Shown here: positions 3,713 through 21,337 of the stretch, piece after piece | Position numbering within the stretch: position 1 is the stretch's first letter | Layout of the letters: each line of letters opens with the position of its first letter | Source of the DNA: Acutalibacteraceae bacterium | GTDB lineage: Bacteria; Bacillota; Clostridia; Oscillospirales; Acutalibacteraceae | Assembly (NCBI GenBank): GCA_045602785.1 | Contig: JAZSCF010000049.1 | Coordinates: forward strand, 487-64,486 | Direction of reading: 5' to 3' | Length of the DNA: 64,000 bases | Notes under the pieces: generated by a model | The model's database searches: none | What the model was told of the DNA's origin: nothing | The model's input: the letters and a program-made list of their open reading frames with translations, nothing else | Made by a program: the position numbers and the translations under genes

Positions 3713-4465
3713 ATGGAAAATTTGTTTTCTTGTGCTATGGATATTGGTGAGCAAATGCTTATTTCGGGCGCCGAAGTTCATAGGGTTGAAGAAAGCATTA
3801 GCCGTATTTGCTACGCTTTAGGCGCAAAAAGGGTTGATGTTTTTATAATTACAAGCAGTATGGTTGTTACTATTCAAACCGAAGAAGATAAAACATACAC
3901 ACAAACAAGGCGTGTTGTTAGCAGTAATATTAATTTTGAAAGAGTGCATCTTTTAAATCAATTATCGAGAGAAATTTGTGAAAAATCTCTTTCAGAGCAG
4001 GAAATAAGAGAAAAATTTGAAAAAGCGGTTAATTGCAAAAAGTATTCATTTTGGTTAGAGCTTGCTTCTTATGCAGTAATTGCTGCCGTTTTCACACTGT
4101 TTTTTGGTGGTACTGTTATAGAGTCAATAGTCTCTTTATTTATTGGTGCAATTGTAAGAGTGGCACTTTTCTTGTGCGAGAAAATAATCTCTAACAAAAT
4201 TTTCGGCAAATTTCTTTCAACAATAATTATTACATTTTTAGCCTATTTATCCATTAAAGTTGGGTTTATAACTAACGTAGATAAAATTATCATAGGTAAT
4301 ATTATGACCCTTATTCCAGGTATTGGTTTAACAAATGCTTTGCGCGATTTATTTACAGGGGATAGCATAGCTGGTCTTTTGCGTTCAATTGAGGCGGTTT
4401 TAACCGCCCTTGCTATAGCGGCAGGATATATTCTTGTTGCCTTTTTTGGAGGATTTGCGCTATGA
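3713..4465 (+). CDS. Threonine/serine exporter family protein (ThrE/YjjP-like, DUF1212 part)
   Basis: ISGAEVHRVEESI motif and C-terminal TM bundle. Overlaps the partner gene by 4 nt. Confidence 0.75.
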   Translation: MENLFSCAMDIGEQMLISGAEVHRVEESISRICYALGAKRVDVFIITSSMVVTIQTEEDKTYTQTRRVVSSNINFERVHLLNQLSREICEKSLSEQEIREKFEKAVNCKKYSFWLELASYAVIAAVFTLFFGGTVIESIVSLFIGAIVRVALFLCEKIISNKIFGKFLSTIIITFLAYLSIKVGFITNVDKIIIGNIMTLIPGIGLTNALRDLFTGDSIAGLLRSIEAVLTALAIAAGYILVAFFGGFAL

Positions 4466-4917
4466 CAACAAATCAAATTATTCAAATTTTAGCAGGCTTT
4501 GTTGGGTCTATGGGCTTTGCAGTTCTATTTAATGTTCGCGGAATAAAGTTATTTATAGCATCTATTGGCGGATTAATATCTTGGTTATTATTTGTTCTTT
4601 TAAGCAAAGGAATAAGTAACGAGCCTGTAAATTACTTTATTGTAGCGTTGGTTATTTCTTTATATGCCGAAATAATGGCAAGGGTATTTAAAACCCCTGC
4701 ATCAACCTTTGTTACAACTTCCCTAATACCGCTAATTCCCGGTAGCTCGCTTTACTATACTATGACCTATGCCTTTAATCGAAGTTTTGAAGACTTTTTG
4801 CAAAAGGGTATTTACACTTTACAGTTAGCGGCAGCTTTGGCTTTGGGTATTATTGTATCAACCGCCCTCACTCGAATATTGTACCGAGTAAAGTTTAGAA
4901 AAAAGAATATTAATTAA
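4462..4917 (+). CDS. Threonine/serine exporter family protein (YjjB-like, DUF3815 part)
   Basis: Small 4-5 TM protein, ATGA-coupled to the preceding gene. This is the typical two-gene arrangement. Confidence 0.7.
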   Translation: MTTNQIIQILAGFVGSMGFAVLFNVRGIKLFIASIGGLISWLLFVLLSKGISNEPVNYFIVALVISLYAEIMARVFKTPASTFVTTSLIPLIPGSSLYYTMTYAFNRSFEDFLQKGIYTLQLAAALALGIIVSTALTRILYRVKFRKKNIN

Positions 4918-4920
4918 AAC

Positions 4921-4953
4921 AAAAAACTTCTCAAAAAAACTGAGAAGTTTTTT
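4921..4953. terminator. Bidirectional terminator between convergent genes
   Basis: aaaaaacttctca / tgagaagtttttt with an A-run and a T-run on either side. Confidence 0.8.
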
Positions 4954-5002
4954 AAACTTTTTGATTACAAAACATAAAAAATATGTTATAATATTCTAGA
5001 TA

Positions 5003-5845
5003 TTATTTTGGATAATAATGTTGACAAAATTTTTTAGGGCTTTCTCCCCAAAAACGCTTAAAGGTTTTGCTAAAGTAGTATTCATCGGGAAAATCTAAAG
5101 CTTCGGCAACCTCTCTAATATTATATTCGCCTGTAAGCAGTAGCTCAATGGCGCGTTGCGTTTTAAGATAATTTTTATATTCAATGGGTGTTTTGCCTGT
5201 AATTTCTTTAAACTTTTTTCTAAACGCGCTTTGACAAAGGCTGCAGCTTTCAGCCATAGCGGCTACATCAACCTTGGATAATGGGTTGTTTTCAATTTGG
5301 AAAATAGCGTTATAAATAGAGTCCCTTTTCTTAATTTCCTTTTTTATAGAGCTATTGAAAAGAACATATAATAGCTTTGTGAGCAGTGAAAGGCACATAA
5401 AATTAGAGCCGTAACTATGCTCAGAGCATAATTCGGTAATTTGATTAAAGTAGGAAAGATACATATCCCCATGGTCGTGCGCTATTACCGAAATATTGTT
5501 GGATATATTGATATTGGTATTATCTTTATTAGTAATTAAAAATAAAATTAAAACATGGTCAATGTTATTTTCATCTTCCCAAACCGAGTCGTATTCTACA
5601 TTGTGGGGAAGATATACAATATCACCCTTTGTAGCAGTAATTTTTCGGGTTTTAGTGCCTTGGTATTCAGTGAATTCGGTTTTGCCGTTTCTTACATAAA
5701 ACAATCGGCTATAAGGACGCATATTTTTTCTGCAAGAAAAGCTTTTTACCTGCTTTGTTTCCTTAGAGTCTTTGGCTAATATAAAGGAAATACTTATGTT
5801 TTCGTTAAAAATGTTAAAATCGTTGAACAATCCATAACACCTCAA
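5003..5845 (-). CDS. AraC family transcriptional regulator (cupin N-domain plus HTH), divergent from operon 1
   Basis: C-terminal AraC HTH (AFRKKFKEITGKTPIEYKNYLKTQRAIELL, FSKTFKRFWGESP). The start is a TTG in the ORF track and the N-terminus is uncertain. Confidence 0.8.
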   Translation of the reverse strand: MRCYGLFNDFNIFNENISISFILAKDSKETKQVKSFSCRKNMRPYSRLFYVRNGKTEFTEYQGTKTRKITATKGDIVYLPHNVEYDSVWEDENNIDHVLILFLITNKDNTNINISNNISVIAHDHGDMYLSYFNQITELCSEHSYGSNFMCLSLLTKLLYVLFNSSIKKEIKKRDSIYNAIFQIENNPLSKVDVAAMAESCSLCQSAFRKKFKEITGKTPIEYKNYLKTQRAIELLLTGEYNIREVAEALDFPDEYYFSKTFKRFWGESPKKFCQHYYPK

Positions 5846-5956
5846 TTCTTCTACTGTGTCATATTATACATTTTTTTAATTGATTTGTCTATGGTTAATT
5901 TCTTCAAAAATGATATATTTATATTAGAAAATTATTTTTGAAAGGCCGTGTGTTTT

Positions 5957-7225
5957 ATGAAACTTAATATTGGTATTGTTGGCTTTGGTGAGTTTTCTCG
6001 TACCTTTTTAGAGCTATTTTTACACCATCCTAATGTAGAAGCGGTAAAAGGTGCGGAAATTATGGATGACCGCCGCCAAGAGATTGCTAATCAGTTTGGA
6101 ATAACTATGTATTCATCGTTTGAAGAAATGCTCGAAAAAGACAAGGAACTTAATGCGGTTGCAATTTTTTCTCAAAGACATCAGCACGGTCCTATGGCGA
6201 TTGAAGCCTTAAAAGCAGGTAAGCACGTGTTCAGCGCCGTGCCTGTTGGCTGTACCGAAGAAGAAATTAAGGAAATTGTTCGTTTAGTAGAAGAAACGGG
6301 TCTTACTTATATGGCGGCTGAAACCTGCTATTATTTCCCTTGCGCAGTATTTTGCCGTGAAAAGTTTAAAACAGGCTATTTTGGTGAGTTTGTTTATGGC
6401 GAGAGCCAATATTATCATGATATTTCTGCTATGTTTGATTCATTCTCGGGTTCGGGTGGTAATGAATGGAAAAAGGTTGCAGGTGTTCCGCCTATGTATT
6501 ATTCAACCCACTCAATGTCTATGATGTTCTCTTCAATAAACGACCATCCTGTTTCAGTTACCTGCTTTGGTTATGAAGACAAAACAGGTGATGATATTTA
6601 CGGCGAAGGTAAAAACCATTGGGATAACCCATTCTCAAACGAAACTGCAATTTTCGAGATGTCTAAGGGTGGCTTTGCTAGAATAAACGAGTTTAGAAGA
6701 ATTGGTACCTTTAAACCTTCTTCTTACATAACAGGTCTTTACGGTAAGCTTGGCGCTTATGAAGGTAGCGGTATGAATCATTTTGTCATTCGTGGTGATG
6801 TAAATGAACACCCCGAAAGCGAAGATGTTAGTCACCTTATAAATGCTCAAAAATATGAAAGCGTAAAATCGCAAATAGACCAAAGTGAAGGTAGAATGAA
6901 TTATCTTAAATATCATACAGGCTATTCTGCTATTCATAATGTTGAGCGTTTGCCAAAAGAAATAGCACATTTAGAAAGTAAGTTTGGATATACACTTGAC
7001 GGGCATAATGGCACTCACGTATTCCTAGTTGATGACTTTGTGCGTGCAGTTTGTTCGAACCTTGTACCACCAAATAATATTTGGGATTCAGCCGTTTATG
7101 CTGTAGCAGGTATTACTGCGCATAATTCGGCTTTGCAGGGCGGTAAATCACTTCCTGTTCCGTTCTTTGGTAATGCGCCTGAAGGCTGGGAACAAAAGTG
7201 GGAAGAGGAATTAAAAAATAATTAA
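5957..7225 (+). CDS. Gfo/Idh/MocA family oxidoreductase (long C-terminal domain)
   Basis: IGIVGFGEFS Rossmann start and EKP-like block. ATG 5957 lies within ORF 5948..7225. Confidence 0.8.
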   Translation: MKLNIGIVGFGEFSRTFLELFLHHPNVEAVKGAEIMDDRRQEIANQFGITMYSSFEEMLEKDKELNAVAIFSQRHQHGPMAIEALKAGKHVFSAVPVGCTEEEIKEIVRLVEETGLTYMAAETCYYFPCAVFCREKFKTGYFGEFVYGESQYYHDISAMFDSFSGSGGNEWKKVAGVPPMYYSTHSMSMMFSSINDHPVSVTCFGYEDKTGDDIYGEGKNHWDNPFSNETAIFEMSKGGFARINEFRRIGTFKPSSYITGLYGKLGAYEGSGMNHFVIRGDVNEHPESEDVSHLINAQKYESVKSQIDQSEGRMNYLKYHTGYSAIHNVERLPKEIAHLESKFGYTLDGHNGTHVFLVDDFVRAVCSNLVPPNNIWDSAVYAVAGITAHNSALQGGKSLPVPFFGNAPEGWEQKWEEELKNN

Positions 7226-7244
7226 TTTTGAAAGGTTTGATTAT

Positions 7245-8030
7245 ATGAAAGTAAGCAGTTGTATTGATATGATGTTCGCAAATATGGATTTTAATGATAG
7301 AATTGAATCTGTCAAACAGTGCGGTCTGGATGGAATCGAGTTTTGGAAATGGACTAATAAGAATTTAGACGAGGTTATAGCGCTTAAAGATAAACACAAT
7401 TTAGGCTTTGCTGTATTTAATATTGATTCTACTGATGAAAAGCTTTCTTACGATCTTTCAAGGGGTATTTTAAATGCAGGTAGGGTAGAAGAGTTTTTAA
7501 AAGCTTTACAAGAAAGTATACCCGTATATAAAAGATTAAATGCATCGGCTATGATAGTGCTTGTTGGTGAAACCATAGCTGATATGCCATGTGAAGAACA
7601 AATTGAAAATGTTTATAAATGTCTTAAAGCAGCGGCACCTGTGGCTGAAGCAAACGGAATAATAATAGTGGTTGAACCGTTAAACTCTGTCGACCGCGAA
7701 AATTACTTTTTACCTTACGCTAAGGATCTTATGGATATACTTGACCGCGTAGACAGTAAAAATGTGAAAATGCTTTATGATATTTATCACCAAAATGTTA
7801 TGGGTGATTTTTCAATGGATTTCATTAAAGCTAATATTAATAGAATCGGTCATTTCCATGTTGCTGATTGCCCCGGTAGACACGAGCCAGGGACCGGTAA
7901 AGTTGATTATGTACCCATAATTGAAGAAATAAATAAAACTAATTATAGCGGTTTTATTGGTCTTGAATACAGAGCAACAAAACCCGACTGTGAAACTTTA
8001 GGTTTTTTGAAGGAGATAAAGAATGTTTAA
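7245..8030 (+). CDS. Hydroxypyruvate isomerase / inosose isomerase-like xylose-isomerase-fold TIM-barrel protein
   Basis: GLDGIEFW, VEPLNS.DRENYFL and IGHFHVADCPGRHEPGTG motifs are typical of the Hyi family. Confidence 0.7.
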   Translation: MKVSSCIDMMFANMDFNDRIESVKQCGLDGIEFWKWTNKNLDEVIALKDKHNLGFAVFNIDSTDEKLSYDLSRGILNAGRVEEFLKALQESIPVYKRLNASAMIVLVGETIADMPCEEQIENVYKCLKAAAPVAEANGIIIVVEPLNSVDRENYFLPYAKDLMDILDRVDSKNVKMLYDIYHQNVMGDFSMDFIKANINRIGHFHVADCPGRHEPGTGKVDYVPIIEEINKTNYSGFIGLEYRATKPDCETLGFLKEIKNV

Positions 8031-9096
8031 GGTTTGTATAATCGGTAGCGGTATGATAGCAAAAAGCGCTCACATACCCGCTTATAAAGAATATCCCGAA
8101 GATTTTTCAATAGTAGGTATATTTGATGTAAATAAGGAAGCTGCAAAAGAGGTTGCTAAAGAATTTGGTATTGAGAATGTATATACCGATGCTGAAACAA
8201 TGCTTAAAGAACAAAAGCCTGATTTGGTTTCGGTTTGTGCACCTAATATGTTCCATAAAACATACACATTGTTAGCGCTTAACTACGGTGCAAATGTTTT
8301 ATGTGAAAAGCCACTTGCTTTTACTTATGCGGATGCAAAAGAGATGTTTGATTTGGCTTCCGAAAAGGGCAAAACCCTTATGGCTTGCCAAAGCTTGCGT
8401 TTCTTACCTGAAAGATTAGCGGTATACGAACAGGTTAAAAATGGAAATGTTGGCGATGTTTACTATGCCGAGCTTTCAAGAATCCGCCGTAGAGGTATAC
8501 CCACTTGGGGTAAATTCCACTTAAAAGCGTTTAGCGGTGGCGGTGCACTTGTTGATATTGGTGTTCACGGTATAGATTCTGCTATTTGGCTTATGGGCAA
8601 CCCCGAACCACAAAGCGTTATCGCTAATATGAGCAAGGTTCACGCAAACGAACATGGCTCTGCCAAAAGCTCGGGCGCATTAAAGGATAATGTAACTGTT
8701 AATACTTTTGATCCTGAGCAAATGGATGTTGAATCTTTTTCAAGCGGTACAGTAAAATTCAAAAACGGCGCTGTGCTTTCGTTCAAGGTTTCTTGGGCAG
8801 CTAACTTGAAGGAAGAAAATAATATTGTTCTTTCAGGAAGCAACTGTGGTATTGATATGGAAAACCGCAAGATTTATTCAAATGCAGAAGATATTAATGA
8901 TTTAGCAGTTATTCCTAACGGCTTTAAGGATGAACCTTTTTATGGTCATTTTTGCATTGTTAAGAATATGTTAGATGTTTTAAAGGGTGTAGATGAACCG
9001 TTTATCAAACCCGAAGAAACACTTAATGTAACTGCAATACTTGAAGCGGCTTATAATTCGGCTGAGAAAGGCGAAGAGGTGGCTATTAATGTTTAG
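8023..9096 (+). CDS. Gfo/Idh/MocA family oxidoreductase
   Basis: VCIIGSGMIA Rossmann motif and CEKPLA motif. The start overlaps the preceding stop (ATGTTTAA). Confidence 0.85.
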   Translation: MFKVCIIGSGMIAKSAHIPAYKEYPEDFSIVGIFDVNKEAAKEVAKEFGIENVYTDAETMLKEQKPDLVSVCAPNMFHKTYTLLALNYGANVLCEKPLAFTYADAKEMFDLASEKGKTLMACQSLRFLPERLAVYEQVKNGNVGDVYYAELSRIRRRGIPTWGKFHLKAFSGGGALVDIGVHGIDSAIWLMGNPEPQSVIANMSKVHANEHGSAKSSGALKDNVTVNTFDPEQMDVESFSSGTVKFKNGAVLSFKVSWAANLKEENNIVLSGSNCGIDMENRKIYSNAEDINDLAVIPNGFKDEPFYGHFCIVKNMLDVLKGVDEPFIKPEETLNVTAILEAAYNSAEKGEEVAINV

Positions 9097-10186
9097 AGCA
9101 GTAATTATTGGTTTCGCACATATGCATGTTAATGAAATTGCAAAATATATTGATGAGTGTGAAGATTTTACACTTGTTGGTTTTGCAGATGTGCCTGCCG
9201 AAACCCCCGAAAAAACCGAAGCGAGATATACTCGTGCTTGGAATATTAAAAATAATGCAGAACTTTATAATATCACTCCACACGATGATTATAAAGCAAT
9301 GCTTGATGAGCTTAAACCCGATATTGCATTTATTCTTTGCGACAATGCTAATAAACCCGAGATTGTTGAAGAATGTGCTAAAAGGGGAGTTAATGTAAGC
9401 ATTGAAAAGCCTATGGCTGTAAGCTTAGAGGATGCGCTTAAGATTAAATCAAGTGTAGATAAATACGGCATTGAAGCAGTTGTAAACTGGCCTGTTATTT
9501 GGCGCCCGTTCTTACATAAACAAATTGCTGCGCTTGAAAGCGGTAAGTTTGGTAAGCTTATAAAAGCGTTTTATATTAACGGTCATACAGGTCCACTTGG
9601 TAAAGGCGCTAAGCATAGAGGCGTTACTGAAAAAGCACAGGAAATGACCGACCAAGAACGCGCATCTACTTGGTGGTATAAAAACGAAACAGGTGGCGGT
9701 GCATTTTTAGATATTGGCTGTTACGGTTGTTTCTTTAACGAATGGGTAAGGGATAACGATGATAAGCCGTTGTCGGTTATGGCATTCTCGGGCAATTATA
9801 ATCACCCTTATATGAACGCACCTGATAATATGGCAGGTATTATTGAATATAAAGATTCTTTTGGTGTTGTTGAAGGTACTTGGACTGTACCCCAGTCTTC
9901 TTTACCAAAGGGCCCTGTTTATATGTGCAGTGAAGGTGTTCTATTTTGCGATGAAAATATGGATGTAGTTGGTATGAATATTTATGGTGATAAGGTAGAA
10001 TTACCTGAATATGATATTCACCCTGCACTTAAGAATTTGCCTGACCATTATTCATATTGCAAAAAGACAGGTACACCACTATTAAAGACCGTAACTCTTG
10101 ATTTTAATATCCGCTTAATGCGACTTATTGATGCGGCTATGAAATCTGCTAAATCAGGTAAAAAAGAGATAGTTTGCGATGAATAA
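9089..10186 (+). CDS. Gfo/Idh/MocA family oxidoreductase (divergent)
   Basis: ATG 9089 (MFRAVIIGFAHMHV) overlaps the preceding stop (ATGTTTAG). Carries the SIEKPMA motif. The 9041 extension is unlikely. Confidence 0.75.
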   Translation: MFRAVIIGFAHMHVNEIAKYIDECEDFTLVGFADVPAETPEKTEARYTRAWNIKNNAELYNITPHDDYKAMLDELKPDIAFILCDNANKPEIVEECAKRGVNVSIEKPMAVSLEDALKIKSSVDKYGIEAVVNWPVIWRPFLHKQIAALESGKFGKLIKAFYINGHTGPLGKGAKHRGVTEKAQEMTDQERASTWWYKNETGGGAFLDIGCYGCFFNEWVRDNDDKPLSVMAFSGNYNHPYMNAPDNMAGIIEYKDSFGVVEGTWTVPQSSLPKGPVYMCSEGVLFCDENMDVVGMNIYGDKVELPEYDIHPALKNLPDHYSYCKKTGTPLLKTVTLDFNIRLMRLIDAAMKSAKSGKKEIVCDE

Positions 10187-10964
10187 AGCTGTGGTTGTAA
10201 ATATCCAAAGAGCTTCTGTACACGATGGCCCTGGGCTTCGTACTACTGTGTTTTTTAAAGGATGTCCTTTAAAATGCGCGTGGTGTCATAACCCCGAATC
10301 TATTGACCCTAAACCCCAAATTTTACACTATCCCGAAAAGTGCATTGGTTGCGGTTTATGTGAAGAAGGTTGCTTTTCGGGTGCTAAGGTTGTGTGTGGT
10401 AAGGAAATGACAGCAGAAGAAATATTTGCTGAAATTTTGCAAGATAAACCAAACTACGCTGGTAACGGCGGCGCTACCTTTTCGGGCGGTGAGCCGCTTA
10501 TTTACCCTAAAATTTTAAAAGAACTGATAACACTTTGCAAAAATAACGGAATTGGCACCGCTATTGAAACTTCGCTTTATCTTTTCGACCCGGAAATACT
10601 TAGTAGTGTTGATTTTGTTATGGCTGATTTTAAAATTTGGGATAACCACAAACACAAGCAATATACAGGTGTTAATAACGATATTATTAAGGAAAACTTT
10701 AAGCGGTTGGATGCACTTGGTACTCCTTTTATGGTTAGAACACCTATTATTCCTACAATTAACGATTCAGTTGATGAAATTGTAAAAATAAGAGATTTTA
10801 TAAAAGATTTTAAAAATATTGTGGATTATGAATTGTTACCATACCATTCACTTGGGGTGACAAAGCAAAAAGCTTTGGGAATTAGTGAAACGGTTTTCGA
10901 AATTCCCGAAAAAAGTAAAATGGAGTTGCTTAAGAGTTATGCTAACATTAAAGCAAAGAATTGA
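10179..10964 (+). CDS. Glycyl-radical enzyme activating protein (radical SAM)
   Basis: VHDGPGLRTTVFFKGCPLKCAWCHNPE (CxxxCxxC) plus a ferredoxin-like CIGCGLCEEGC and GGEPL. Confidence 0.9.
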   Translation: MNKAVVVNIQRASVHDGPGLRTTVFFKGCPLKCAWCHNPESIDPKPQILHYPEKCIGCGLCEEGCFSGAKVVCGKEMTAEEIFAEILQDKPNYAGNGGATFSGGEPLIYPKILKELITLCKNNGIGTAIETSLYLFDPEILSSVDFVMADFKIWDNHKHKQYTGVNNDIIKENFKRLDALGTPFMVRTPIIPTINDSVDEIVKIRDFIKDFKNIVDYELLPYHSLGVTKQKALGISETVFEIPEKSKMELLKSYANIKAKN

Positions 10965-13155
10965 TGCTATTCGTAAGACTAAGATAGACCATACACTAAT
11001 AAAGCGCGAACAAAACGGTTATACCGACCTTGATGATTTCGGCACAGTACCACTACCCGAAAATTATATAGTTAAGCCTTGGTATAACAGCGAAAACGGA
11101 AGTTTTTACGGGCTTGACGGTATGGCAGAAAACTTTTGTCGCGTAATGGATGCACACGCACCTTATGTGGACCCACTTGAGATGCTTTGTGGCAGATGGC
11201 GCGACATGCTTGTAAACTATCGCGGCGATATTCACTATATGCCTACTTGGAGAAAGGCACAACTTACTGAAGATGATTTTTCCGGTGTTACTGCTCAATG
11301 GAGTAAACGTTGGGATGAAAAGAGTTTTCCGTATGACCATTTAAAGCCTTTGCAAAAAAAATATAATATACAAACAGGTATTGATGGAGATGCCCATCTT
11401 GCTTGTGACTATACTATAGGCTTAAATTTAGGTTTTGGCGGTTTCCTTAGTAAAATAGAAAAGTACAGAAATATTAATCCCGACAAAAAGGATTTTTATG
11501 ATGCTGAGGAAAAGTGTGTTTTAGCTATTGTTCGTTTTATAGATAGACATATTGCTGAAATAGAAAAACAAATAGAGACTGAAACACGCCCCGAAATTAA
11601 GGAAAGCCTTGAAAAAATGCTTATTGTTAATAAAAACATAAGATTAGGCGCTCCTAAAACATTTTATGAAGCGTGTCAATGGGTAGCACATTTTAACTGT
11701 GCATCCCGTGTTTACACTCGCGATGGCGCAGGTTTTCAGCTTGATACCATACTTTTGCCGTATTATGAAAACGATGTTAAAAACGGCATTTTAGATGATG
11801 AAACGGCTAAGTTTTTAATCGCTAACCTTTTGCTTATTGACCCACATTATTATCAAATTTCGGGCGTGGACGTTGATGATAAGGATATAACAAATCATTT
11901 ATCTTACCTTATTCTTGAAGCGGCTGATATGATTGATATTTCCTGTAACTTAACCGTTCGTGTTCACGAAAACTGCGACAAAGCTTTCTTTGATAAGGCG
12001 GTTTATTACCTTTTGAAGAACAAAAACGGTTGGCCGCGTTTTTGTAGCGATAAAAATTTATGTGAAGGCTATATGAAAAACGGCATTTCTAAAGAGATTG
12101 CACGTAAGCGTATTGCTGTTGGTTGTAACTGGATGTGCGTTCCAGGAATAGAATTTCCTATGAACGACACTGTTAAAATTAACATTGCAAAGGTGCTTGA
12201 AAACGCTTTGGAAGATATGAAAGCAGAGCCTTTAAAGTCTACAAATAGACTTTTCGAGCTTTTTGAAGAGCATCTTAAAATAGCAACAGATGTAACTGCA
12301 CAAGGTATAAATCTTCATATAGACCATCAAGCAGAAGTAACACCCGAGCTTATTATGAATCTTATGATGGAGGATACACTCGAAAAAGGTCTTGATATTT
12401 CGCAGTGTGCAAAGCTTTATACAGTGGGCGTAGACGGTGCTGGGCTTGCCGTTGTTGCTGATAGCTTTGGTGCTTTGGAACTTCGCGTAGAAACTGAAAA
12501 GCTTCTTTCTTGGGATGAAGTTTACGAAAACCTACAAAACAATTTTGATGGTGTTAAGGGCGAGAGAACAAGACTTTTGCTTAATTCCACACCAAAGTAT
12601 TGCGGTGGTGATACTGTTTCGGATAAGTGGGCTAAAAAGATTACTGATATTTGGGTAAAAACAATTAAGGCTCAAGAAATGCCTGAGGGCAGACAGTTAG
12701 TTCCCGGTTGGTTTAGTTGGGCGCGTACTATTGAGTATGGTAAAGCAGTAGGTGCAACACCTAACGGCAGAAAAGCCTTTGAACCGATTTCACATGGCGC
12801 TAATCCAAATCCACATTTCAGAACAGACGGTGCGGTTACTGCGCAATCAAACGGTATTGCTGCAGTACAATGCGGTTACGGTAATACAGCACCATTGCAA
12901 ATTGAGTTTGACCCCAAGCTCGCTGATGACAGTAAGGGTGTTGAGGTTGTAGGTAACCTTGTTAAGAGCCATTTTGAACAGGGTGGTACACTAATAAACA
13001 TAAATGTTCTTGATACCGAAAAGCTTATGGAAGCACATAAAAACCCCGAAACACATCCCGATTTGGTTGTTCGTGTTACAGGCTTTACTGCTTATTTTGC
13101 AAGTTTGTCACCTGAATTTAGACAGCTTGTTGTTGAAAGATTTTTGACCGATTAG
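10939..13155 (+). CDS. Glycyl radical enzyme, PFL-like fold, divergent (738 aa)
   Basis: C-terminal glycyl radical motif VVRVTGFTAYF (Gly715), GATPNGR block and candidate Cys loop VGCNWMCVPG. ATG 10939 lies within ORF 10885..13155. Confidence 0.85.
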   Translation: MLTLKQRIDAIRKTKIDHTLIKREQNGYTDLDDFGTVPLPENYIVKPWYNSENGSFYGLDGMAENFCRVMDAHAPYVDPLEMLCGRWRDMLVNYRGDIHYMPTWRKAQLTEDDFSGVTAQWSKRWDEKSFPYDHLKPLQKKYNIQTGIDGDAHLACDYTIGLNLGFGGFLSKIEKYRNINPDKKDFYDAEEKCVLAIVRFIDRHIAEIEKQIETETRPEIKESLEKMLIVNKNIRLGAPKTFYEACQWVAHFNCASRVYTRDGAGFQLDTILLPYYENDVKNGILDDETAKFLIANLLLIDPHYYQISGVDVDDKDITNHLSYLILEAADMIDISCNLTVRVHENCDKAFFDKAVYYLLKNKNGWPRFCSDKNLCEGYMKNGISKEIARKRIAVGCNWMCVPGIEFPMNDTVKINIAKVLENALEDMKAEPLKSTNRLFELFEEHLKIATDVTAQGINLHIDHQAEVTPELIMNLMMEDTLEKGLDISQCAKLYTVGVDGAGLAVVADSFGALELRVETEKLLSWDEVYENLQNNFDGVKGERTRLLLNSTPKYCGGDTVSDKWAKKITDIWVKTIKAQEMPEGRQLVPGWFSWARTIEYGKAVGATPNGRKAFEPISHGANPNPHFRTDGAVTAQSNGIAAVQCGYGNTAPLQIEFDPKLADDSKGVEVVGNLVKSHFEQGGTLININVLDTEKLMEAHKNPETHPDLVVRVTGFTAYFASLSPEFRQLVVERFLTD

Positions 13156-13161
13156 TTAAAA

Positions 13162-13192
13162 ACGGAGTATAAGAGAATTTCTTATACTCCGT
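13162..13192. terminator. Bidirectional terminator between the GRE and the convergent AraC gene
   Basis: Perfect 12-bp stem acggagtataag/cttatactccgt. Confidence 0.85.
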
Positions 13193-13196
13193 AATT

Positions 13197-14024
13197 TTAT
13201 ATTGTTTTTATTGAATTTCTATAAATAGATGGCGCCACACCATATTCACGAGAAAAAATATTGCAAAAATGATTAGGATTTTCTATTCCAATTTCATTTG
13301 TTATTTCAGCGATTGACATATCAGTAAATGCAAGAAGTTCTGCCGCTTTTGTAAGGCGGAATTTTTTTATATATTTGTGAAGTGTAAGACCCGAATGGTG
13401 TTGTAAAACATTACTTAAATAAAACGAATGATAACCGAGTGCGTTGGCAACATCATCGTTTGATTTAATAGTTTTATAGTTGTTGGAAATATAATTTATA
13501 ATTTCATTGTAAAGGTGATTACCTTTTTGGTTTTTATATTCAGCAAGCTTTAATAATGCACATTTTAAGTACGATTCGGCAATTTCGTTAGCGTATATTG
13601 TATTTTTTTTGTACTCCTTTTCGGTGTTGATTAAAATTTCTTCAATAAATTGTGCATTAGGAATTACAAATGCTTCACGAAATAGCTCAATTTCACATTC
13701 GTTCTGTGAGAAAATTCCTAATTCATTAACAAATTTGTTGGATTTTATGGGTGTTAAGAAGTTTTGTATATGTTTGTTTTGGTGTGATAAGTCGAAGTTT
13801 ATAACAATGAATTTTAGCGGATTATCGCTTGAAGATAAGGGATAATATTCTATTCCCGTTGGACAGTAGCAAAAAGAACCTCTTGTAAGCGGGTAACGAT
13901 CATTTGCAAGTAATATTTCTCCTTCACCATCGAGAATATAAAATATTCTTAAATCGTAAGCCTTGGTTGGAAACTTGTTTGGCAGACAATCAGTTTTAGC
14001 TAAATATCGTATAAATAAATCCAT
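13197..14024 (-). CDS. AraC family transcriptional regulator, divergent from operon 2
   Basis: Cupin-like N-domain and C-terminal HTH (LHKYIKKFRLTKAAELL, FCNIFSREYGVAPS). Confidence 0.85.
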   Translation of the reverse strand: MDLFIRYLAKTDCLPNKFPTKAYDLRIFYILDGEGEILLANDRYPLTRGSFCYCPTGIEYYPLSSSDNPLKFIVINFDLSHQNKHIQNFLTPIKSNKFVNELGIFSQNECEIELFREAFVIPNAQFIEEILINTEKEYKKNTIYANEIAESYLKCALLKLAEYKNQKGNHLYNEIINYISNNYKTIKSNDDVANALGYHSFYLSNVLQHHSGLTLHKYIKKFRLTKAAELLAFTDMSIAEITNEIGIENPNHFCNIFSREYGVAPSIYRNSIKTI

Positions 14025-14175: not shown

Positions 14176-15189
14176 ATGAAATATTTGGTTGGATTACAAG
14201 TTAATAACGATGCTCTTATATCTGAAATAATTAAAAATAAAGAATCTATTAGCGAAGTATATTTTTCTTGGGGAGATTTTCCTAATGGAAGAAGCACCCT
14301 TGATACTACCGGCAGTCTTACATTATTTGAAATGCAACAGCTTATGGTTTCTAATTTAAATAAACTAATAGCTTCAGGCATTGATTTTAATTTATTATTA
14401 AATGCAAACTGCTATGGTGCAAATAGTCAGTCAAAAAGTTTTTTTAATAAAATAGGTAACACTCTCGATTATATTAAAACAAATTTTGGTTTAAAAGCAG
14501 TTACCACAACTTCGCCCTTAATTGCAAAGTTTGTAAAGCAAAATTTTCCGCAGCTAGAGGTTAGGGCTTCTGTAAATATGGAAATTGGTACAACTATTGG
14601 TATGGATTACATAGCAGATTTATTTGATAGTTTTTATCTTAAACGTGAATATAATAGAAACTTACAAATTGTTACTAAAGCAAGAGAGTGGTGTAATGCA
14701 AACGGTAAAAAGCTTTACGGACTTGCCAATAGTGGTTGCTTGAATTTTTGTTCTACCCATATTTTTCATGATAATTTAGTAGCACATGAAAGCGAAATTG
14801 CGGAAAAGGATAATGGATATCAGTTTGTTGGACAATGTTGGGATTATTTAAAGAAAGCAGAAAAACAAGAAAAATGGCTTTCGATTACAAATTTTATTCG
14901 CCCTGAGGATGTTTATTTATACGATGGCTTATTTGACGGATTAAAGCTTGCAACAAGGGTTAATAAAAATCCTGCTAAAATCATTCAATCGTATTGTAAT
15001 TCATCTTATAACGGTGCGATAACCGATTTGCTTGAGCCCAATCATTCAGGGGTATTTTATCCAAATGTTATTGATAATAAATCGATTTCGAAAGATTTCG
15101 CGCAAACGGTTCTTAAATGTTCGAAAAAGTGTGATGAGTGTAATTATTGCGATCAAATACAAAAAAATGCTACAGTTGTTTTAGAATAG
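14176..15189 (+). CDS. U32-peptidase-family-like protein (putative Fe-S TIM-barrel enzyme) with C-terminal CxxxCxxCxxC
   Basis: By-eye colinearity with U32 blocks (EVYFSWGDFPNGRS; FNLLLNAN; TTTSPLIAKFVKQNFPQLEVRASVN; YLKREYN; LANSGCLNFCS). C-terminal Cys315/319/322/325. Confidence 0.4.
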   Translation: MKYLVGLQVNNDALISEIIKNKESISEVYFSWGDFPNGRSTLDTTGSLTLFEMQQLMVSNLNKLIASGIDFNLLLNANCYGANSQSKSFFNKIGNTLDYIKTNFGLKAVTTTSPLIAKFVKQNFPQLEVRASVNMEIGTTIGMDYIADLFDSFYLKREYNRNLQIVTKAREWCNANGKKLYGLANSGCLNFCSTHIFHDNLVAHESEIAEKDNGYQFVGQCWDYLKKAEKQEKWLSITNFIRPEDVYLYDGLFDGLKLATRVNKNPAKIIQSYCNSSYNGAITDLLEPNHSGVFYPNVIDNKSISKDFAQTVLKCSKKCDECNYCDQIQKNATVVLE

Positions 15190-15200
15190 GAGTTTAAATT

Positions 15201-16283
15201 ATGCTTAGTAGTAAATTAATCAAAGAAGCAGCGCTTGCTGCAGGTGCCGATGTTTGCGGTATCGCGCCTATCAGTAGAATGAAGGGTGCTCCTGATGAAA
15301 TGAATCCAATGTTTCTATTCCCCGAAGCCAAAAGTATGATAGGATTTGTTTTTCGTATTCCACGTGGTGTTCAAAGGGGGATTGAAGAAGGAACTCAATT
15401 TTATCAGTATCCCTCTATGGCGTATGGTGGCATAAACGAGATTTTTGCCCCTGCAGTACTTTATAGCGTTGGCAAGGTTATAGAAGATAATGGTTATGAG
15501 GCGTTTGTATATAGAAATACAGGAGCCAGAGGCTGTGTTTCCGATATGGACGGCAGCGAGGGTAATACTCTTTCGCCTGAAGAACAAATTGAAGTAAACG
15601 AAAATGCCAAGACCTCTACCGCACATCATAGGAATGTGCAATTTACTCGCGCGACTAGGGAAGATAATGTTCCACCTGATTTACAGTTTCAGTTTAGATT
15701 AGCGGCTGTTGCTTGCGGCCTTGGTGAAATTGGTTGGAGTAAAATGCTATTAACACCCGAATTTGGTCCTTTACAGCGTGTGGCATTTATTTTTACTGAT
15801 GCAGAATTCGATGAATATGATGAAATGTATAACGGTGAGTCACTTTGCCGTAAGTGCGGTGCATGTGTCAGAGAATGCCCGGGCGGTTGTATTCCGGCAA
15901 TCAATTCGGGTAAAAAAATTACTGTTCAAATTGAAGACAAAATTTCTGAGTGGGGTGACATAGATATGTGGCGTTGCTATGCCTTTTATACCCACGCGGG
16001 AAGATACTATAACCCCTTTGTTCCTAAAGAAGTTTGGGATAAGAACGAGAACGGTGCGCTTGACTTAATGGAAGGTGTTACCAATATTGCTAATGAACAG
16101 GAAATTATGAAGGTTTATACTGCGCTTCAAAAATATTTTCCAAGCTGGGTTGGATACAATATGGCTAAATGTGGTGGTTGTATTAGAGCTTGCGTTTCTA
16201 TGCTTGAGAAAAAAGGCGGTTGTATGGAAGGACGTTTTAAAGAACCGTTAAGAACGAAAAAGGCTTGGAAGTTGGACAGATGA
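15201..16283 (+). CDS. QueG / reductive-dehalogenase superfamily Fe-S protein, paralogue 1 (360 aa)
   Basis: N-terminus LIKEAALAAGADVCGIA, CGLGEIGWSKMLLTPEFGPLQR block, CRKCGACVRECP ferredoxin motif and second Cys cluster KCGGCIRAC. Confidence 0.7.
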   Translation: MLSSKLIKEAALAAGADVCGIAPISRMKGAPDEMNPMFLFPEAKSMIGFVFRIPRGVQRGIEEGTQFYQYPSMAYGGINEIFAPAVLYSVGKVIEDNGYEAFVYRNTGARGCVSDMDGSEGNTLSPEEQIEVNENAKTSTAHHRNVQFTRATREDNVPPDLQFQFRLAAVACGLGEIGWSKMLLTPEFGPLQRVAFIFTDAEFDEYDEMYNGESLCRKCGACVRECPGGCIPAINSGKKITVQIEDKISEWGDIDMWRCYAFYTHAGRYYNPFVPKEVWDKNENGALDLMEGVTNIANEQEIMKVYTALQKYFPSWVGYNMAKCGGCIRACVSMLEKKGGCMEGRFKEPLRTKKAWKLDR

Positions 16284-16624
16284 TTGACATATCGAATTTT
16301 TGCGGCAAAGATTTTAAGGTTGTAACCGAAGCGGAAAAATGGAAAATAGGTTTTTTAAGATATTCCGATAGATTTTCAAAGTTTACTGCATTGGAACGGC
16401 ATTTGTTAACTGATGAAGCTTTTATTTTGCTAAAAGGCAAAGCGGTTCTTTATATCGAAAACGAAAATGGTGTTATAGTTAAGTATAAAATGAAAAAGCT
16501 ACAGGTATACAATGTTCGTGAAAAAGTGTGGCATCATATAACAGTTAGCAAAAATGCAACCGTAATGGTTGTAGAAAACCAAAACACAAGTAAGGAAAAT
16601 ACAGAAAGGCGGAGTCTAATATGA
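16280..16624 (+). CDS. Small cupin-fold protein (ERH motif, ureidoglycolate-lyase-like)
   Basis: ATG 16280 overlaps the paralogue 1 stop (ATGA). ALERHLLTDEAFILLKG and a beta-rich profile. Its stop overlaps the next start. Confidence 0.4.
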   Translation: MIDISNFCGKDFKVVTEAEKWKIGFLRYSDRFSKFTALERHLLTDEAFILLKGKAVLYIENENGVIVKYKMKKLQVYNVREKVWHHITVSKNATVMVVENQNTSKENTERRSLI

Positions 16625-17523
16625 ATCTTCTTACTAAAGAACAAATTAAAATAAAGGCTAAAGAATTAGGAGCCAGTGTATGTGGTGTTGGAAAGGTTTA
16701 TGAAGAGACTAACCCGCAGCGTGACCCTAAAATGATTTTACCAAATGCCAAATGTATTATTGGCTTTGGTTTTGCAGTACCAAAGGGATTATATCTTACA
16801 ATGGATATAAAATCTCAATACTATTCTTACACTTCAATGGGAGTTAAATATATCGACGAAGAAATGGCGGAGATATTTTTACTTAAAATAGGTGGTATAA
16901 TTGAAAACGAAGGTTACGATGCATGTCTTCAAAAAGCAATACCAAATCTTCGTATAAAGGGAGATACGACAACTAACCCAGAGGTAATGGATACATATGA
17001 GCTTATCCATGCACAAGCGGTAGAAGTCGGCAAGCCTGTACCTGACGTGATTATTGATTTTGGCAAGGCTGCCAAAGCTTGTGGCATTGGTGAAATGGGA
17101 CTTAGCGGTAAAATTATAAATAAAGATTATGGTCCTTTTATGCGTTACTGTTTTATTATTACGGATATGCCCTTAGAACCCGATGAAATAAAAAACGAAG
17201 TGATTTGTGATAATTGCGGTGAATGCATAAAGGCTTGCCCCGGTAATGCTATAAGTGATAACGGACTTGATACTTGGCAATGCGCTGTATACTATAAAGG
17301 TGCACATAAATCTAATCCCTTTATTACAGATGAATTTTTAAAGGGTAATCCCGAACGTGAAGCAATTCTTAACGGCGAAAAGCGTTTTGATGTTGAGAGC
17401 GCAAGAGAAATCTACAAAGAAATGAATTTCTTACCTAATACGCAATGGGGTTATGCACCTTGCCTTTGCGGTAAAAAATGCGATGTTGCTTGTTATAGGC
17501 ATTTGAAAGGGGAGTTGAAGTAA
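16621..17523 (+). CDS. QueG / reductive-dehalogenase superfamily Fe-S protein, paralogue 2 (300 aa)
   Basis: AKELGASVCGVG, CGIGEMGLSGKIINKDYGPFMRY, CDNCGECIKACPGNAIS and CLCGKKCDVAC. Confidence 0.7.
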   Translation: MNLLTKEQIKIKAKELGASVCGVGKVYEETNPQRDPKMILPNAKCIIGFGFAVPKGLYLTMDIKSQYYSYTSMGVKYIDEEMAEIFLLKIGGIIENEGYDACLQKAIPNLRIKGDTTTNPEVMDTYELIHAQAVEVGKPVPDVIIDFGKAAKACGIGEMGLSGKIINKDYGPFMRYCFIITDMPLEPDEIKNEVICDNCGECIKACPGNAISDNGLDTWQCAVYYKGAHKSNPFITDEFLKGNPEREAILNGEKRFDVESAREIYKEMNFLPNTQWGYAPCLCGKKCDVACYRHLKGELK

Positions 17524-18458
17524 TGAAACGTGAAATCATTAAGATTGCGAAAGAAAACTTTGCGGATATTGTTGGATTTGCAAGTGCTAAAAGTTTTGAC
17601 GAAAACGACCCTATTTTTAAAATATTTCCGGAAACTAAAACTGTTATTGGTCTAGCTTTCAGAGTTTTAAGAGGTGCATATAGAGGTACAGAAGAAGGAA
17701 CTACATATTATCAATATACAACTATGGCAGTTGAAAATATGGAAGAAACCATAATGCCAATGGCACAACTAAGAATTGCAAACTTTATTGAAAGTAAAGG
17801 CTATATTGCTGTTCCGCAACGACGCCATCAACAAATTATGGCAGAAGAAAATAGCACTAATCCCGAAGTTGCTTATGATGCGATTTTTAGAAACAAAACT
17901 GCCGAGAATCAAATGAATTTTGTTGACGCTGCTGTAAAATGCGGCATTGGTGAAAAGGGGCTTTCGGGTGCGATTTTAACAGATGATTATGGCCCTATGG
18001 TTAGATATTGCTTTATTCTAACCAATTTGGTAATTGAGCCTGATTCAGTTAAAGAAGCGCATCTTTGCGATAATTGTGGAAAATGTGTTATGGCGTGTCC
18101 TGGTAAAGCAATTAGTGAAAACGGCGTGCTCGACGCTTGGCAATGCGCAGTTTATTATAATGGTGCTAATGGTACTAAAAATCCTTTTATGCCACCGGAT
18201 GCTTTTTCTAAATTAGATAACCGACTTGAAATTATTGCCGGTGAAGCAAGAGTTACACCTGAAACCGCTAAGAAAATCCTTGATGAAATTTTCTTTTATC
18301 CGCCGGCACAGCATGCATATCAATGTTCAATATGTGGCAGAGCGTGCGATACTGCTTGTTATATCCATTTGGAAGAAAAGGGTGTTTTAAACAAAAAATT
18401 CAAACGTCCTTTTAGAACACGGGATGAATGGAAATTTGATATAACTGATTTTGAATAA
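17523..18458 (+). CDS. QueG / reductive-dehalogenase superfamily Fe-S protein, paralogue 3 (311 aa)
   Basis: CGIGEKGLSGAILTDDYGPMVRY, CDNCGKCVMACPGKAIS and CSICGRACDTAC. The start overlaps the paralogue 2 stop by 1 nt. Confidence 0.7.
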   Translation: MKREIIKIAKENFADIVGFASAKSFDENDPIFKIFPETKTVIGLAFRVLRGAYRGTEEGTTYYQYTTMAVENMEETIMPMAQLRIANFIESKGYIAVPQRRHQQIMAEENSTNPEVAYDAIFRNKTAENQMNFVDAAVKCGIGEKGLSGAILTDDYGPMVRYCFILTNLVIEPDSVKEAHLCDNCGKCVMACPGKAISENGVLDAWQCAVYYNGANGTKNPFMPPDAFSKLDNRLEIIAGEARVTPETAKKILDEIFFYPPAQHAYQCSICGRACDTACYIHLEEKGVLNKKFKRPFRTRDEWKFDITDFE

Positions 18459-18479
18459 TTATTTAAATAGGTGTTTAAT

Positions 18480-20189: not shown

Positions 20190-20205
20190 TGAAATGATTT
20201 ATTTA

Positions 20206-20236
20206 AAAACCGTACTAAAATGAGTACGGTTTTTGG
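20206..20236 (+). terminator. Rho-independent terminator of operon 2
   Basis: aaaaccgtact / agtacggtttt stem followed by a T-run. Confidence 0.85.
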
Positions 20237-20290
20237 TTGCAATATATTTTTTGGTGTGCTATACTGAACAGGATAAAGGAAGTGACACCT

Positions 20291-21337
20291 ATGTACAAAA
20301 ACGCTTGCGAAAAATTAGATAATTTTATTGCGGATTATTATAATCGTTATAAAAATTCAGGTAGCCTTAGAGTTACTTATAAAGACGAAATAATTTATGA
20401 AAAAAGCTTTGGCTTTGCGAATATTGAAAAGGAACTTCCTTTTACAAAAGAATCAATTTTTTCTTTTTACTCACTATCAAAGCCTTTTTGTGCTATAGGT
20501 CTTCTAAAACTAAAAGATAAAAAGCTTGTTGATATAGATGCTCATCCGTCTAAATATCTTCCCGAAACAAAAGGCTTTGATGAAAATGTAACAATCAGGC
20601 AAATGCTACACCATATTAGCGGTTTGCCTGATTTTAATCAAACGGCAAAGTTTGAGCAAAAATATAAGACAGGTTTTTCGTTCGAGTTGCGTGACCATTT
20701 AAAAGAACTAACTAATTATTCAATGGTATTTGCACCCGGCACAAAGGGAATGTATGCCAATATTAACTTTATAATTCCCGCTTTGATTATTGAAATTGTT
20801 ACGGGTATGAGTTACGGAGAATATATGAAAAAGGAAGTTTTCGAGCCTCTTGGAATGAGAACCGCAATGGTTGATAATGAAAACTTGTTGTCGGATAATC
20901 GCGTAACAGGTTACGAATTATCGAAAGATAAAAAAATTATTCCCATTGACAGAATGCTTAACTGGACTTTTGGTGCAGCAGATATTGTTGGAACTGTAGA
21001 AGATGTTTATTGCTTAAATAAGGCTATTAAACACAAGCTTATATTAAGCCCGGAAATTTGGGATGAGGTTTTAATACCGTCGCCAATTAATTCTATGGGT
21101 ATGGGCTGTACAGTGAGCACTTGGCATAACAAAAAGCGCATAACCCATAATGGCGGTTGGGATGGCTTTAGAACGCTTCATATACAACTACCCGAAGATG
21201 ATTTTGATATAATATTTTTATCAAACTCGGCTTGGGGTAATGCACGAAATGATATTGCTGAAGCAGTTTATGAAGCTTTTTACGGTGATGATAATGCTGT
21301 ATCTGAAGAAGTGAAAATGGATGCAGGCTATATTTGA
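20291..21337 (+). CDS. Serine hydrolase / beta-lactamase-related family protein
   Basis: SxxK motif (FYSLSKPF) and HHISGLPD. SD AAGGAAGTG precedes ATG 20291. Confidence 0.75.
   Translation: MYKNACEKLDNFIADYYNRYKNSGSLRVTYKDEIIYEKSFGFANIEKELPFTKESIFSFYSLSKPFCAIGLLKLKDKKLVDIDAHPSKYLPETKGFDENVTIRQMLHHISGLPDFNQTAKFEQKYKTGFSFELRDHLKELTNYSMVFAPGTKGMYANINFIIPALIIEIVTGMSYGEYMKKEVFEPLGMRTAMVDNENLLSDNRVTGYELSKDKKIIPIDRMLNWTFGAADIVGTVEDVYCLNKAIKHKLILSPEIWDEVLIPSPINSMGMGCTVSTWHNKKRITHNGGWDGFRTLHIQLPEDDFDIIFLSNSAWGNARNDIAEAVYEAFYGDDNAVSEEVKMDAGYI

Follow-up and report, generated by a model that had tools for sequence, protein, structure and literature searches.

The only glycyl radical enzymes (GREs) known to act on sugars open 1,5-anhydrohexitol-6-phosphates, and every characterised C-O, C-N and C-S eliminase of this superfamily, together with the three isomerases, keeps a C-x-E motif in which the Glu, two residues past the catalytic Cys, hydrogen-bonds and deprotonates a substrate hydroxyl (GRE review of June 2026). 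In the DgpABC, BT2156-2160 and levoglucosan LgdA-C systems, sugars are processed by a 3-dehydrogenase of the Gfo/Idh/MocA (GFO) family, TIM barrels of the xylose-isomerase fold and further GFO reductases, in a redox-neutral sequence of oxidation, cleavage and reduction. The operon described here, at positions 5957-13155 of a 64,000-nucleotide stretch of DNA (the window) on contig JAZSCF010000049.1, resembles these latter systems in its GFO proteins, TIM barrel and redox-neutral logic; however, they cleave by polar beta-elimination and have no radical enzyme, unlike the window operon, which includes a GRE. Its host belongs to uncultured gut Clostridia of an Acutalibacteraceae-like lineage of metagenome-assembled genomes (MAGs). 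By its catalytic residue and its pathway context, the predicted GRE represents a family outside every characterised class, though it is still a GRE. We hold it to be probable, if by no means secure, that this is an AraC-controlled, sugar-catabolic operon of an uncharacterised, sugar-directed GRE lineage, in which radical C-O cleavage would be embedded in a redox-neutral GFO pathway.

The operon consists of six co-directional genes, defined from a listing of open reading frames (ORFs) and by direct reading of their junctions. All on the forward strand, these are g1 (5957-7225), for a 422-residue, atypical GFO-fold protein with a C-terminal extension; g2 (7245-8030), for a 261-residue TIM barrel of the xylose-isomerase fold and the Hyi/OtnI clade; g3 (8023-9096), for a canonical, DgpA-like GFO dehydrogenase; g4 (9089-10186), for a divergent GFO protein of 365 residues; g5 (10179-10964), for a radical-SAM glycyl-radical activating enzyme (activase); and g6 (10939-13155), for the GRE itself, of 738 residues. 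A gap of 19 nt separates g1 from g2, and the remaining genes overlap, by ATGTTTAA at g2/g3, ATGTTTAG at g3/g4, ATGAATAA at g4/g5, and by 26 nt at g5/g6. The ATG starts of g4 (9089) and g6 (10939) find support in database proteins of the same lengths (365 and 738 residues, respectively) at 99% identity. An earlier note on this DNA, drawn from its sequence alone, had described six tightly coupled genes with exactly these overlaps and this gap.

The g6 product is a predicted GRE with the catalytic hardware of the superfamily, namely, Gly715, Cys396 and a cognate activase. A PFL-like domain (PF02901, 2e-85) is followed by a C-terminal Gly_radical domain (PF01228, 8e-15). The Gly loop, R712-V713-T714-G715, is invariant in the family alignments, and the catalytic Cys396, within A-V-G-C-N-W, corresponds in alignments to Cys433 of glycerol dehydratase and to the catalytic Cys of PflD; both AVGCNW and RVTGF are invariant across 41 family members. 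Profile alignment onto glycerol dehydratase pairs Cys396 with Cys433, His153 with His164, Asp410 with Asp447, Asp262 with Ser282, and Trp398 with Glu435. Ser282 and Asp447 we presume to have roles in glycerol dehydratase as well, beside those of Glu435 and His164. The latter two roles are documented (GRE review of June 2026). In g6, where the C-x-E Glu would be expected, the loop reads G-C-N-W, with an invariant Trp398, and the enzyme therefore lacks the defining feature of the characterised eliminase and isomerase classes. The loop continues as G-C-N-W-M-C, so that the adjacent Cys-Cys pair of the PFL type is missing too. Seven Trp residues are invariant in the family (W87, W121, W125, W248, W398, W591 and W594), which suggests a carbohydrate-sized site. 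Residues 617-650 (SHGANPNPHFR.DGA.TAQSNGIA.VQCGYGN) are near-invariant in the family, and yet are modelled with a predicted local distance difference test score (pLDDT) of only 33-40; this segment may form a loop close to the active site that is mobile or partner-dependent.

None of the curated models reaches its cut-off on g6. The best of them, TIGR01774 (PFL2-3 subfamily), gives 271 bits against a cut-off of 678, and the equivalogs fall far below theirs, including those for HypD (202 against 1100), HpfG (191 against 1000) and CutC (150 against 1050), and likewise those for HpsG, the decarboxylases and pyruvate formate-lyase (PFL); the PFL equivalog, TIGR01255, reaches 74 bits of the 994 required and aligns with nothing but the C-terminal Gly-radical region. 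In the PDB, sequence and profile searches matched glycerol dehydratase, E. coli PflD and Archaeoglobus PFL2 best. When the AlphaFold2 (AF2) model (pLDDT 81) was compared with solved structures, PflD, propanediol dehydratase, PFL2, glycerol dehydratase and HypD came out near-equal, with template-modelling (TM) scores of 0.70-0.74 and identities of 19-23%. The view that this GRE is an orphan, clustering with no characterised enzyme, is thus upheld by the missed cut-offs, the equidistance of the solved GREs, and the replacement of the C-x-E Glu by Trp.

YbiW and PflD have their domains in the same order as g6, with the same Gly loop and an equally placed catalytic Cys, and they share the logic of radically opening a C-O bond that has no acidic neighbour; no solved structure matches g6 better than PflD (8yjo), which also ranks among the best by sequence. 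However, g6 is only 19-22% identical to these enzymes, is 40-70 residues shorter, has an N-terminal stretch of 140 residues that cannot be aligned, and carries Trp398 in place of the Glu of their G-C-V-E. In addition, the YbiW/PflD genes adjoin a phosphotransferase system (PTS) and a fructose-6-phosphate aldolase (FSA), neither of which occurs in the window or at any related locus examined; the GFO oxidoreductases that take their place as partners imply that the substrate is presumably unphosphorylated. The B12-independent glycerol dehydratase (1r8w) provides the best profile match (3.9e-67), and the equivalents of His164 and Asp447 of glycerol and propanediol dehydratases are kept, together with an activase of the same TIGR02494 type; in contrast, Glu435 has become Trp398, Ser282 has become Asp262, and there is neither a microcompartment nor an aldehyde-processing partner. 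Archaeoglobus fulgidus PFL2 (2f3o), among the best sequence and structure matches, is likewise a solved GRE without an assigned function, but it keeps the canonical G-C-V-E loop, is 23% identical to g6, and has no GFO context.

The family is large. At the 90% level, it comprises more than 120 clusters of proteins 735-744 residues long that share 75-99% identity with g6 and are annotated only as 'formate acetyltransferase'. An exhaustive search of 50%-identity representatives returned full-length relatives at 36-52% identity, others at around 30%, and ordinary GREs at 27-30%. Among the 91 nearest full-length representatives, 24 carry C-x-W (x being N, H, F, Q, G or P) and 57 carry C-x-E, and all 13 representatives that group with g6 have C[N/H]W, none of them C-x-E. 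This indicates that C-x-W marks at least one separate lineage of short GREs, of about 700-760 residues. Members come from human (including Hadza) and ruminant gut metagenomes, sediments and digesters, the closest relatives being gut MAGs labelled Acutalibacteraceae or Clostridia, with GRE identities of 92-94%. Neither this clade nor any link between GREs and GFO proteins was found in the NCBIfam models, the PDB, the GRE review of June 2026 or the searchable literature, namely open-access PubMed Central (PMC) and bioRxiv, a scope that takes in few subscription-journal papers, so that a very recent report may have escaped notice. A list of the GRE papers of 2024-2026 showed no such enzyme, and 'glycyl radical' was not found together with 'DgpA' or with 'Gfo' and 'MocA'.

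We compared 41 family loci from a scan of one genome per species, plus four retrieved by look-up, using tblastn and ORF clustering, and the denominators given below are the loci with enough flanking sequence. The activase lies directly 5' of the GRE in 38 of 39 loci, g4 lies 5' of the activase in 29 of 37, and at least one GFO gene is part of the operon in 32 of 37; 19 of 28 have a divergent AraC gene ahead of the operon, and 13 of 29 contain all six genes. The core of the operon is a four-gene module, consisting of g3, g4, the activase and the GRE. GREs are 70-83% identical where the neighbouring proteins are about 50% identical, and the same operon is carried by a cultured human isolate, Qingrenia yutianensis (assembly GCA_014385105.1).

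Four architectures could be distinguished. Type A has the arrangement of the window, with AraC divergent from g1, the TIM barrel, g3, g4, the activase and the GRE; type B has two extra GFO paralogues, with g3' replacing g3, and often a flavoprotein of family PF12831; type D has other GFO genes together with PF12831; and type C, found in three loci, has AraC, a BNR_2 gene, the activase, the GRE, in some cases PF12831, and a NanA-like aldolase, with no GFO gene. The candidate active-site positions are identical in all types, which argues for one and the same reaction embedded in different contexts. The type C loci (L016, 1976-6946; L017, 8222-13192; L030, 8246-14330) encode GREs 72-81% identical to g6, and their BNR_2 protein is sialidase-like and has no signal peptide, with GDSL esterases nearby. 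A sialic-acid pathway, as these BNR_2, NanA-like and GDSL neighbours would suggest, was considered but not adopted, since amino-sugar genes are missing from the GFO-type loci and both contexts share one GRE active site.

Second in frequency among the accessory partners is the PF12831 FAD-dependent oxidoreductase, present in nine of the 41 family loci and in six distant ones (for example, L003, 5524-6735; L030, 12223-13395; L047, 3880-5094); its match to the PDB is limited to the FAD-binding motif, and no curated function was found for it. Two loci differ by insertions of their own. In L045, a 779-residue GDPD-domain protein (3964-6303) is encoded between g1 and the TIM-barrel gene in an otherwise identical operon, and L007 has an equivalent gap. 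In L028, the only activase gene, which comes before that of the family GRE, is itself directly preceded by the gene for a second, divergent GRE of 712 residues (7044-9182; about 23% identical; Cys loop GCGVLC, Gly loop RVGGF), and the two GREs may share this activase.

The association extends to GREs that are only 37-54% identical to g6, so that gene order, expected by the earlier note to be conserved if the combination is meaningful, indeed recurs in dozens of independent genomes and, as far as GFO neighbours are concerned, at these larger distances as well. At one locus, with a GRE of 44% identity, a CUT1 ABC transporter, PF12831 and a LacI regulator accompany g3', a g4 orthologue, a small cupin, the activase and the GRE; here g3' is 55-59% identical to the type B g3', and the g4 orthologue has the motif VGFAHVH. 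On a human gut contig, a GRE of 50% identity is found with an ABC transporter, a TIM barrel, three GFO genes, an activase and a YesMN-type regulator, which amounts to the gene set of the window plus a transporter. A third locus, with a GRE of 49% identity, has just an RbsB-like (CUT2) monosaccharide ABC transporter, the activase, the GRE and a ROK protein. Other distant partners include kinases of the ROK, FGGY and PFK families, cupins resembling phosphomannose isomerase (PMI), a sugar transporter of the major facilitator superfamily (MFS), a mannitol-dehydrogenase-family gene and GH38. A GFO gene lies at most six genes away in 17 of 76 contigs of distant relatives, many of which are short. 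The transporter binding proteins of the relatives, one of them RbsB-like and one sophorose/maltose-like, do not name a ligand. The recurrence of sugar transporters and kinases together with g3' and g4 indicates that the clade is carbohydrate-associated and that the module of g3'/g4, activase and GRE is old; judging from these loci, the association between GRE and GFO genes is ancient and widespread.

Profile searches, suggested earlier as a check on the operon proteins, assign the GFO proteins, the TIM barrel, the activase and the GRE through Pfam and NCBIfam. GFO_IDH_MocA-type Pfam domains are present in g1, g3 and g4; the three dehydrogenases of the earlier note are therefore three proteins of the GFO fold, of which only g3 is a canonical dehydrogenase. 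This protein, with three GFO Pfam domains covering N- and C-terminal parts, matches DgpA1 (9m3d, 3.6e-56, residues 6-354) and DgpA (7xr9, 3.1e-51) over its full length, and is predicted to be of the DgpA-like pyranoside/glycoside 3-dehydrogenase type; in most loci, distant relatives included, g3 or g3' adjoins g4. The g4 protein retains E106-K107-P108, has the N-terminal motif IGFAHMH, and carries Tyr212 at the position usually held by His, presumably as in glucose-fructose oxidoreductase (GFOR). Its best sequence match in the PDB reaches only about 1e-5. With its AF2 model (pLDDT 93), Foldseek gave TM_0425, aldose-aldose oxidoreductase (AAOR), GFOR and 1,5-anhydrofructose reductase (AFR) as top hits, although these are near-equal, generic GFO matches at 15-18% identity that single out no specific functional neighbour. 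On these sequence and structure features, g4 is a GFOR/AAOR/AFR-like oxidoreductase.

The g1 protein has S-A-V-P in place of E-K-P but retains His185. Its N-terminal domain matches PF01408, and its family profile aligns with DgpA1, dimeric dihydrodiol dehydrogenase, GH109 and YjhC at E-values of 1e-17 to 1e-19; the gene adjoins that of the TIM barrel in 14-15 of 29 loci. A GH109-like glycosidase seems less likely for g1, because the match is confined to the Rossmann half and the profile scores best on DgpA1 and dihydrodiol dehydrogenase. The g2 protein belongs to PF01261 (8e-38) and is closest to hydroxypyruvate isomerase, matching TIGR03234 (175 bits against 353) and NF043033 (144 against 325) over its full length but below their cut-offs; its PDB matches are 3ngf, YgbM and the 3-keto-glucoside epimerase YcjR. 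Of the 'Hyi/IolI-like' label given to it before, the likeness to Hyi/OtnI stands, and that to IolI finds no specific support. As for g5, it passes the cut-off of TIGR02494 (269.8 bits against 174) and carries the cluster motif CPLKCAWC (CX3CX2C). DgpB/DgpC-type lyase subunits are absent from the operon, its sole TIM barrel being the Hyi/OtnI-like g2, with no small subunit. Assignments of the GFO proteins to inositol, levoglucosan or BT2158/9 pathways were rejected, since the curated scores are far too low: the LgdA equivalog NF052479 gives 93 for g3 and 46 for g1 against 650, the BT_2158/2159 equivalogs are also far under their cut-offs, and IolG (108 against 355, g3), IolE (33 against 290, g2) and IolO are missed as well. 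Pfam and NCBIfam found no IolD, IolB, IolC or IolJ gene in the window operon.

How might these components work together? In the sugar pathway that we favour, a neutral, sugar-like compound would be imported by a transporter encoded elsewhere in the genome, the relatives having ABC or MFS sugar transporters within the locus. Shuttling hydride through bound NAD(P), g3 and g4 would oxidise a ring hydroxyl, or epimerise it by way of a keto intermediate. The thiyl radical of Cys396 would then take the carbinol hydrogen beside the scissile bond, and the beta C-O bond, which could be a ring ether or a hydroxyl beyond the reach of polar chemistry, would break, with His153 as the acid and with Asp262, or else a neighbouring keto group through the acidity that it confers, substituting for the absent Glu. 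The carbonyl product would be reduced or isomerised by g4, g1 and the Hyi-like g2 into an ordinary sugar, which would be phosphorylated and enter glycolysis, the overall sequence being redox-neutral. This is in line with the earlier proposal of a candidate new anaerobic route outside the characterised GRE pathways, a proposal that the lack of family matches and the conserved gene order support.

Our leading guess for the substrate is an unphosphorylated anhydro-hexitol or keto-sugar. The concrete version that we would favour, doubtful as it is and built on analogy, is a non-phosphorylative counterpart of the YbiW/PflD 'anhydroglycolysis', in which the GRE would open a pyran ring and the GFO enzymes would interconvert compounds of the 1,5-anhydrofructose, 1,5-anhydroglucitol and 1,5-anhydromannitol type. 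We arrive at it because the known sugar GREs open anhydrohexitol phosphates, because the 1,5-anhydrofructose reductases known so far have the GFO fold, and because an oxygenase at C1 is required in the aerobic route. A broader, tentative possibility, to which we give a little more credit, is that the C-x-W GREs form a new mechanistic class, acting on unphosphorylated and possibly pre-oxidised (keto) sugars with no catalytic Glu and an obligate GFO redox couple, and carrying out a type of reaction unseen in the superfamily (for example, opening of an ether ring, deoxygenation at an unactivated position or C-glycosidic cleavage), as part of a 'radical sugar catabolism' that would be widespread among anaerobes of gut, rumen and sediment.

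Several observations weigh against the sugar pathway as outlined. The window operon has no transporter, kinase or aldolase gene, g1 is devoid of the catalytic Lys of E-K-P, and the clade of g2 is known for the isomerisation of C3/C4 keto-acids and not of hexoses. The Glu that deprotonates the C2-OH in YbiW/PflD is missing from g6, which means that a simple YbiW-like mechanism cannot be assumed, and oxidation may come before or after the radical step. The type C loci, with an identical active site and no GFO gene, are left unexplained by the model.

The nearest alternatives also invoke carbohydrates. If the GRE were a cyclitol or alditol dehydratase, it would dehydrate an inositol isomer, a methyl-inositol or a hexitol, while the GFO proteins and TIM barrels, like IolG, IolX, IolW and IolI, would interconvert isomers and inososes. 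The multiple GFO paralogues, up to six, and TIM barrels do recall inositol clusters, IolG is among the best NCBIfam matches of g1 and g3, His153 and Asp410 are kept as in glycerol dehydratase, the GDPD-domain insert of L045 and L007 could release a polyol phosphate, and a mannitol-dehydrogenase-family gene adjoins one distant GRE. We nevertheless consider this unlikely, given the low IolG, IolE and IolO scores and the lack of IolD, IolB, IolC and IolJ, the proximity of g3 to DgpA (E-56) rather than to inositol dehydrogenases (E-10 to E-18), the existence of a polar IolE route that already handles inosose dehydration, and the disaccharide-type CUT1 transporters of relatives, which suit glycosides better. 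The latter would fit a radical glycosidic cleavage, in which g3 makes a 3-keto-glycoside and the GRE either splits its C-C, C-O or C-S linkage to the aglycone or acts by deoxygenating the keto-sugar. In favour of this, g3 is homologous to DgpA over its full length, the absence of DgpB/DgpC-type subunits leaves the cleavage to another enzyme, a keto group by the radical site could make the Glu unnecessary, and GH2, GH30, GH36, rhamnosidase, GH65 and GH38 genes occur with CUT1 transporters near related loci. But these glycosidase neighbours vary between loci, no GRE is known for such a bond cleavage, and the company of the 49%-identity relative, just a monosaccharide-type (RbsB-like) ABC transporter with a ROK protein, points to a free substrate resembling a monosaccharide; we find this option quite improbable.

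The features examined contradict the three remaining explanations. A glycerol- or 1,2-propanediol-type dehydratase, acting on a C2-C4 diol or on a keto-acid supplied by the GFO and Hyi-like enzymes, is brought to mind by the presence of both dehydratases among the best sequence and structure matches and by the action of the Hyi/OtnI clade of g2 on C3/C4 hydroxy-keto acids. It is nonetheless very improbable, as the essential Glu of C-x-E is Trp in g6, equivalog and subfamily cut-offs are missed, the window has no genes for microcompartment shells, aldehyde dehydrogenase or 1,3-propanediol dehydrogenase, and the many invariant Trp residues suggest a carbohydrate-sized site. Scarcely any credence can be given to a pyruvate or 2-keto-acid formate-lyase, as the public name 'formate acetyltransferase' would have it; although a NanA-like, pyruvate-releasing aldolase adjoins the GRE in three loci, g6 has GCNWMC instead of a Cys-Cys pair and matches TIGR01255 (74 against 994) in the C-terminal region only. 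The same negligible weight falls to a meaningless juxtaposition of GRE and GFO genes engaged in unrelated processes. Accessory genes are variable, and five of 37 loci have no GFO gene among the upstream genes on the GRE strand and the three downstream genes; against this, start/stop overlaps join g2 through g6, g4 precedes the activase in 29 of 37 loci, and g3' and g4 turn up again as a pair next to GREs that come from unrelated habitats and are only 37-54% identical to g6.

Turning to the control elements, an AraC-family regulator with HTH_18 and HTH_AraC domains is encoded divergently from the operon at 5003-5845, on the reverse strand, where an upstream AraC gene had been reported before, and it is probably the activator of the GRE operon. 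The divergent control region (5846-5956) carries the ribosome-binding site (RBS) of g1 (GAAAGG) and, for the AraC gene, a -10/-35-like site at 5891-5863. Just 5' of this RBS there is an inverted repeat with 12-nt arms at 5903-5914 (TTCAAAAATGAT) and 5931-5942 (ATTATTTTTGAA), 16 nt apart, which could be an operator or a chance occurrence in AT-rich DNA; the window as a whole is low-GC. No Rfam element (riboswitch or leader RNA) was found 5' of the operon. At its other end, the strong terminator described in the earlier note corresponds to a bidirectional intrinsic terminator at 13162-13192, a perfect 13-bp inverted repeat with a 5-nt loop, located between the stop codon of the GRE and that of a convergent AraC gene and scored as a terminator on both strands. 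In the window (27168-29371) and in Qingrenia yutianensis (L042, 20387-22170) alike, cdaA (DAC) and ybbR are found close to the operon, and this shared vicinity suggests a conserved chromosomal location, not a mobile island.

The convergent AraC gene (13197-14024, reverse strand; cupin and HTH domains) is present downstream as previously noted, but probably does not belong to the GRE unit. In L002, L014 and L040 it travels with the seven genes of the next operon, d1-d7 (14176-21337, forward strand), which it therefore probably regulates; its candidacy as regulator of the GRE operon is outweighed by this co-travel. In that operon, d1 has no family match, d2, d4 and d5 encode three paralogous Fe-S proteins resembling reductive dehalogenases and QueG, d6 is a DUF5696 protein with a weak likeness to GH101, and d7 is of the beta-lactamase fold; between loci whose GREs share 73-92% identity, d2 is conserved at 88-96%. 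The d3 gene (16265-16624, forward strand) encodes a small cupin with a weak WbuC-cupin match, 35% identical (E 5e-23) to the product of a gene located between g4 and the activase in L047 (8730-9167), and homologues of d3 also adjoin GREs in L068, L074, L077 and L130; d3 is thus a possible accessory component of the GRE system. In L006, a DUF5696 gene is found inside the GRE operon. With d3 homologues and DUF5696 in or beside GRE operons, the two operons may be functionally linked.

Earlier GRE discoveries showed gut anaerobes using nutrients that resist polar chemistry, such as choline, hydroxyproline, isethionate and anhydro-hexitols. Here we have an abundant clade that is missing the residue regarded as a hallmark of eliminase and isomerase catalysis, and that is tied to the GFO family, which had not previously been linked to GREs. 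Since the cultured Qingrenia yutianensis carries it, the operon is directly testable; finding the substrate would extend anaerobic metabolism by a carbohydrate pathway, and would test whether the C-x-E Glu is dispensable on a pre-oxidised substrate.

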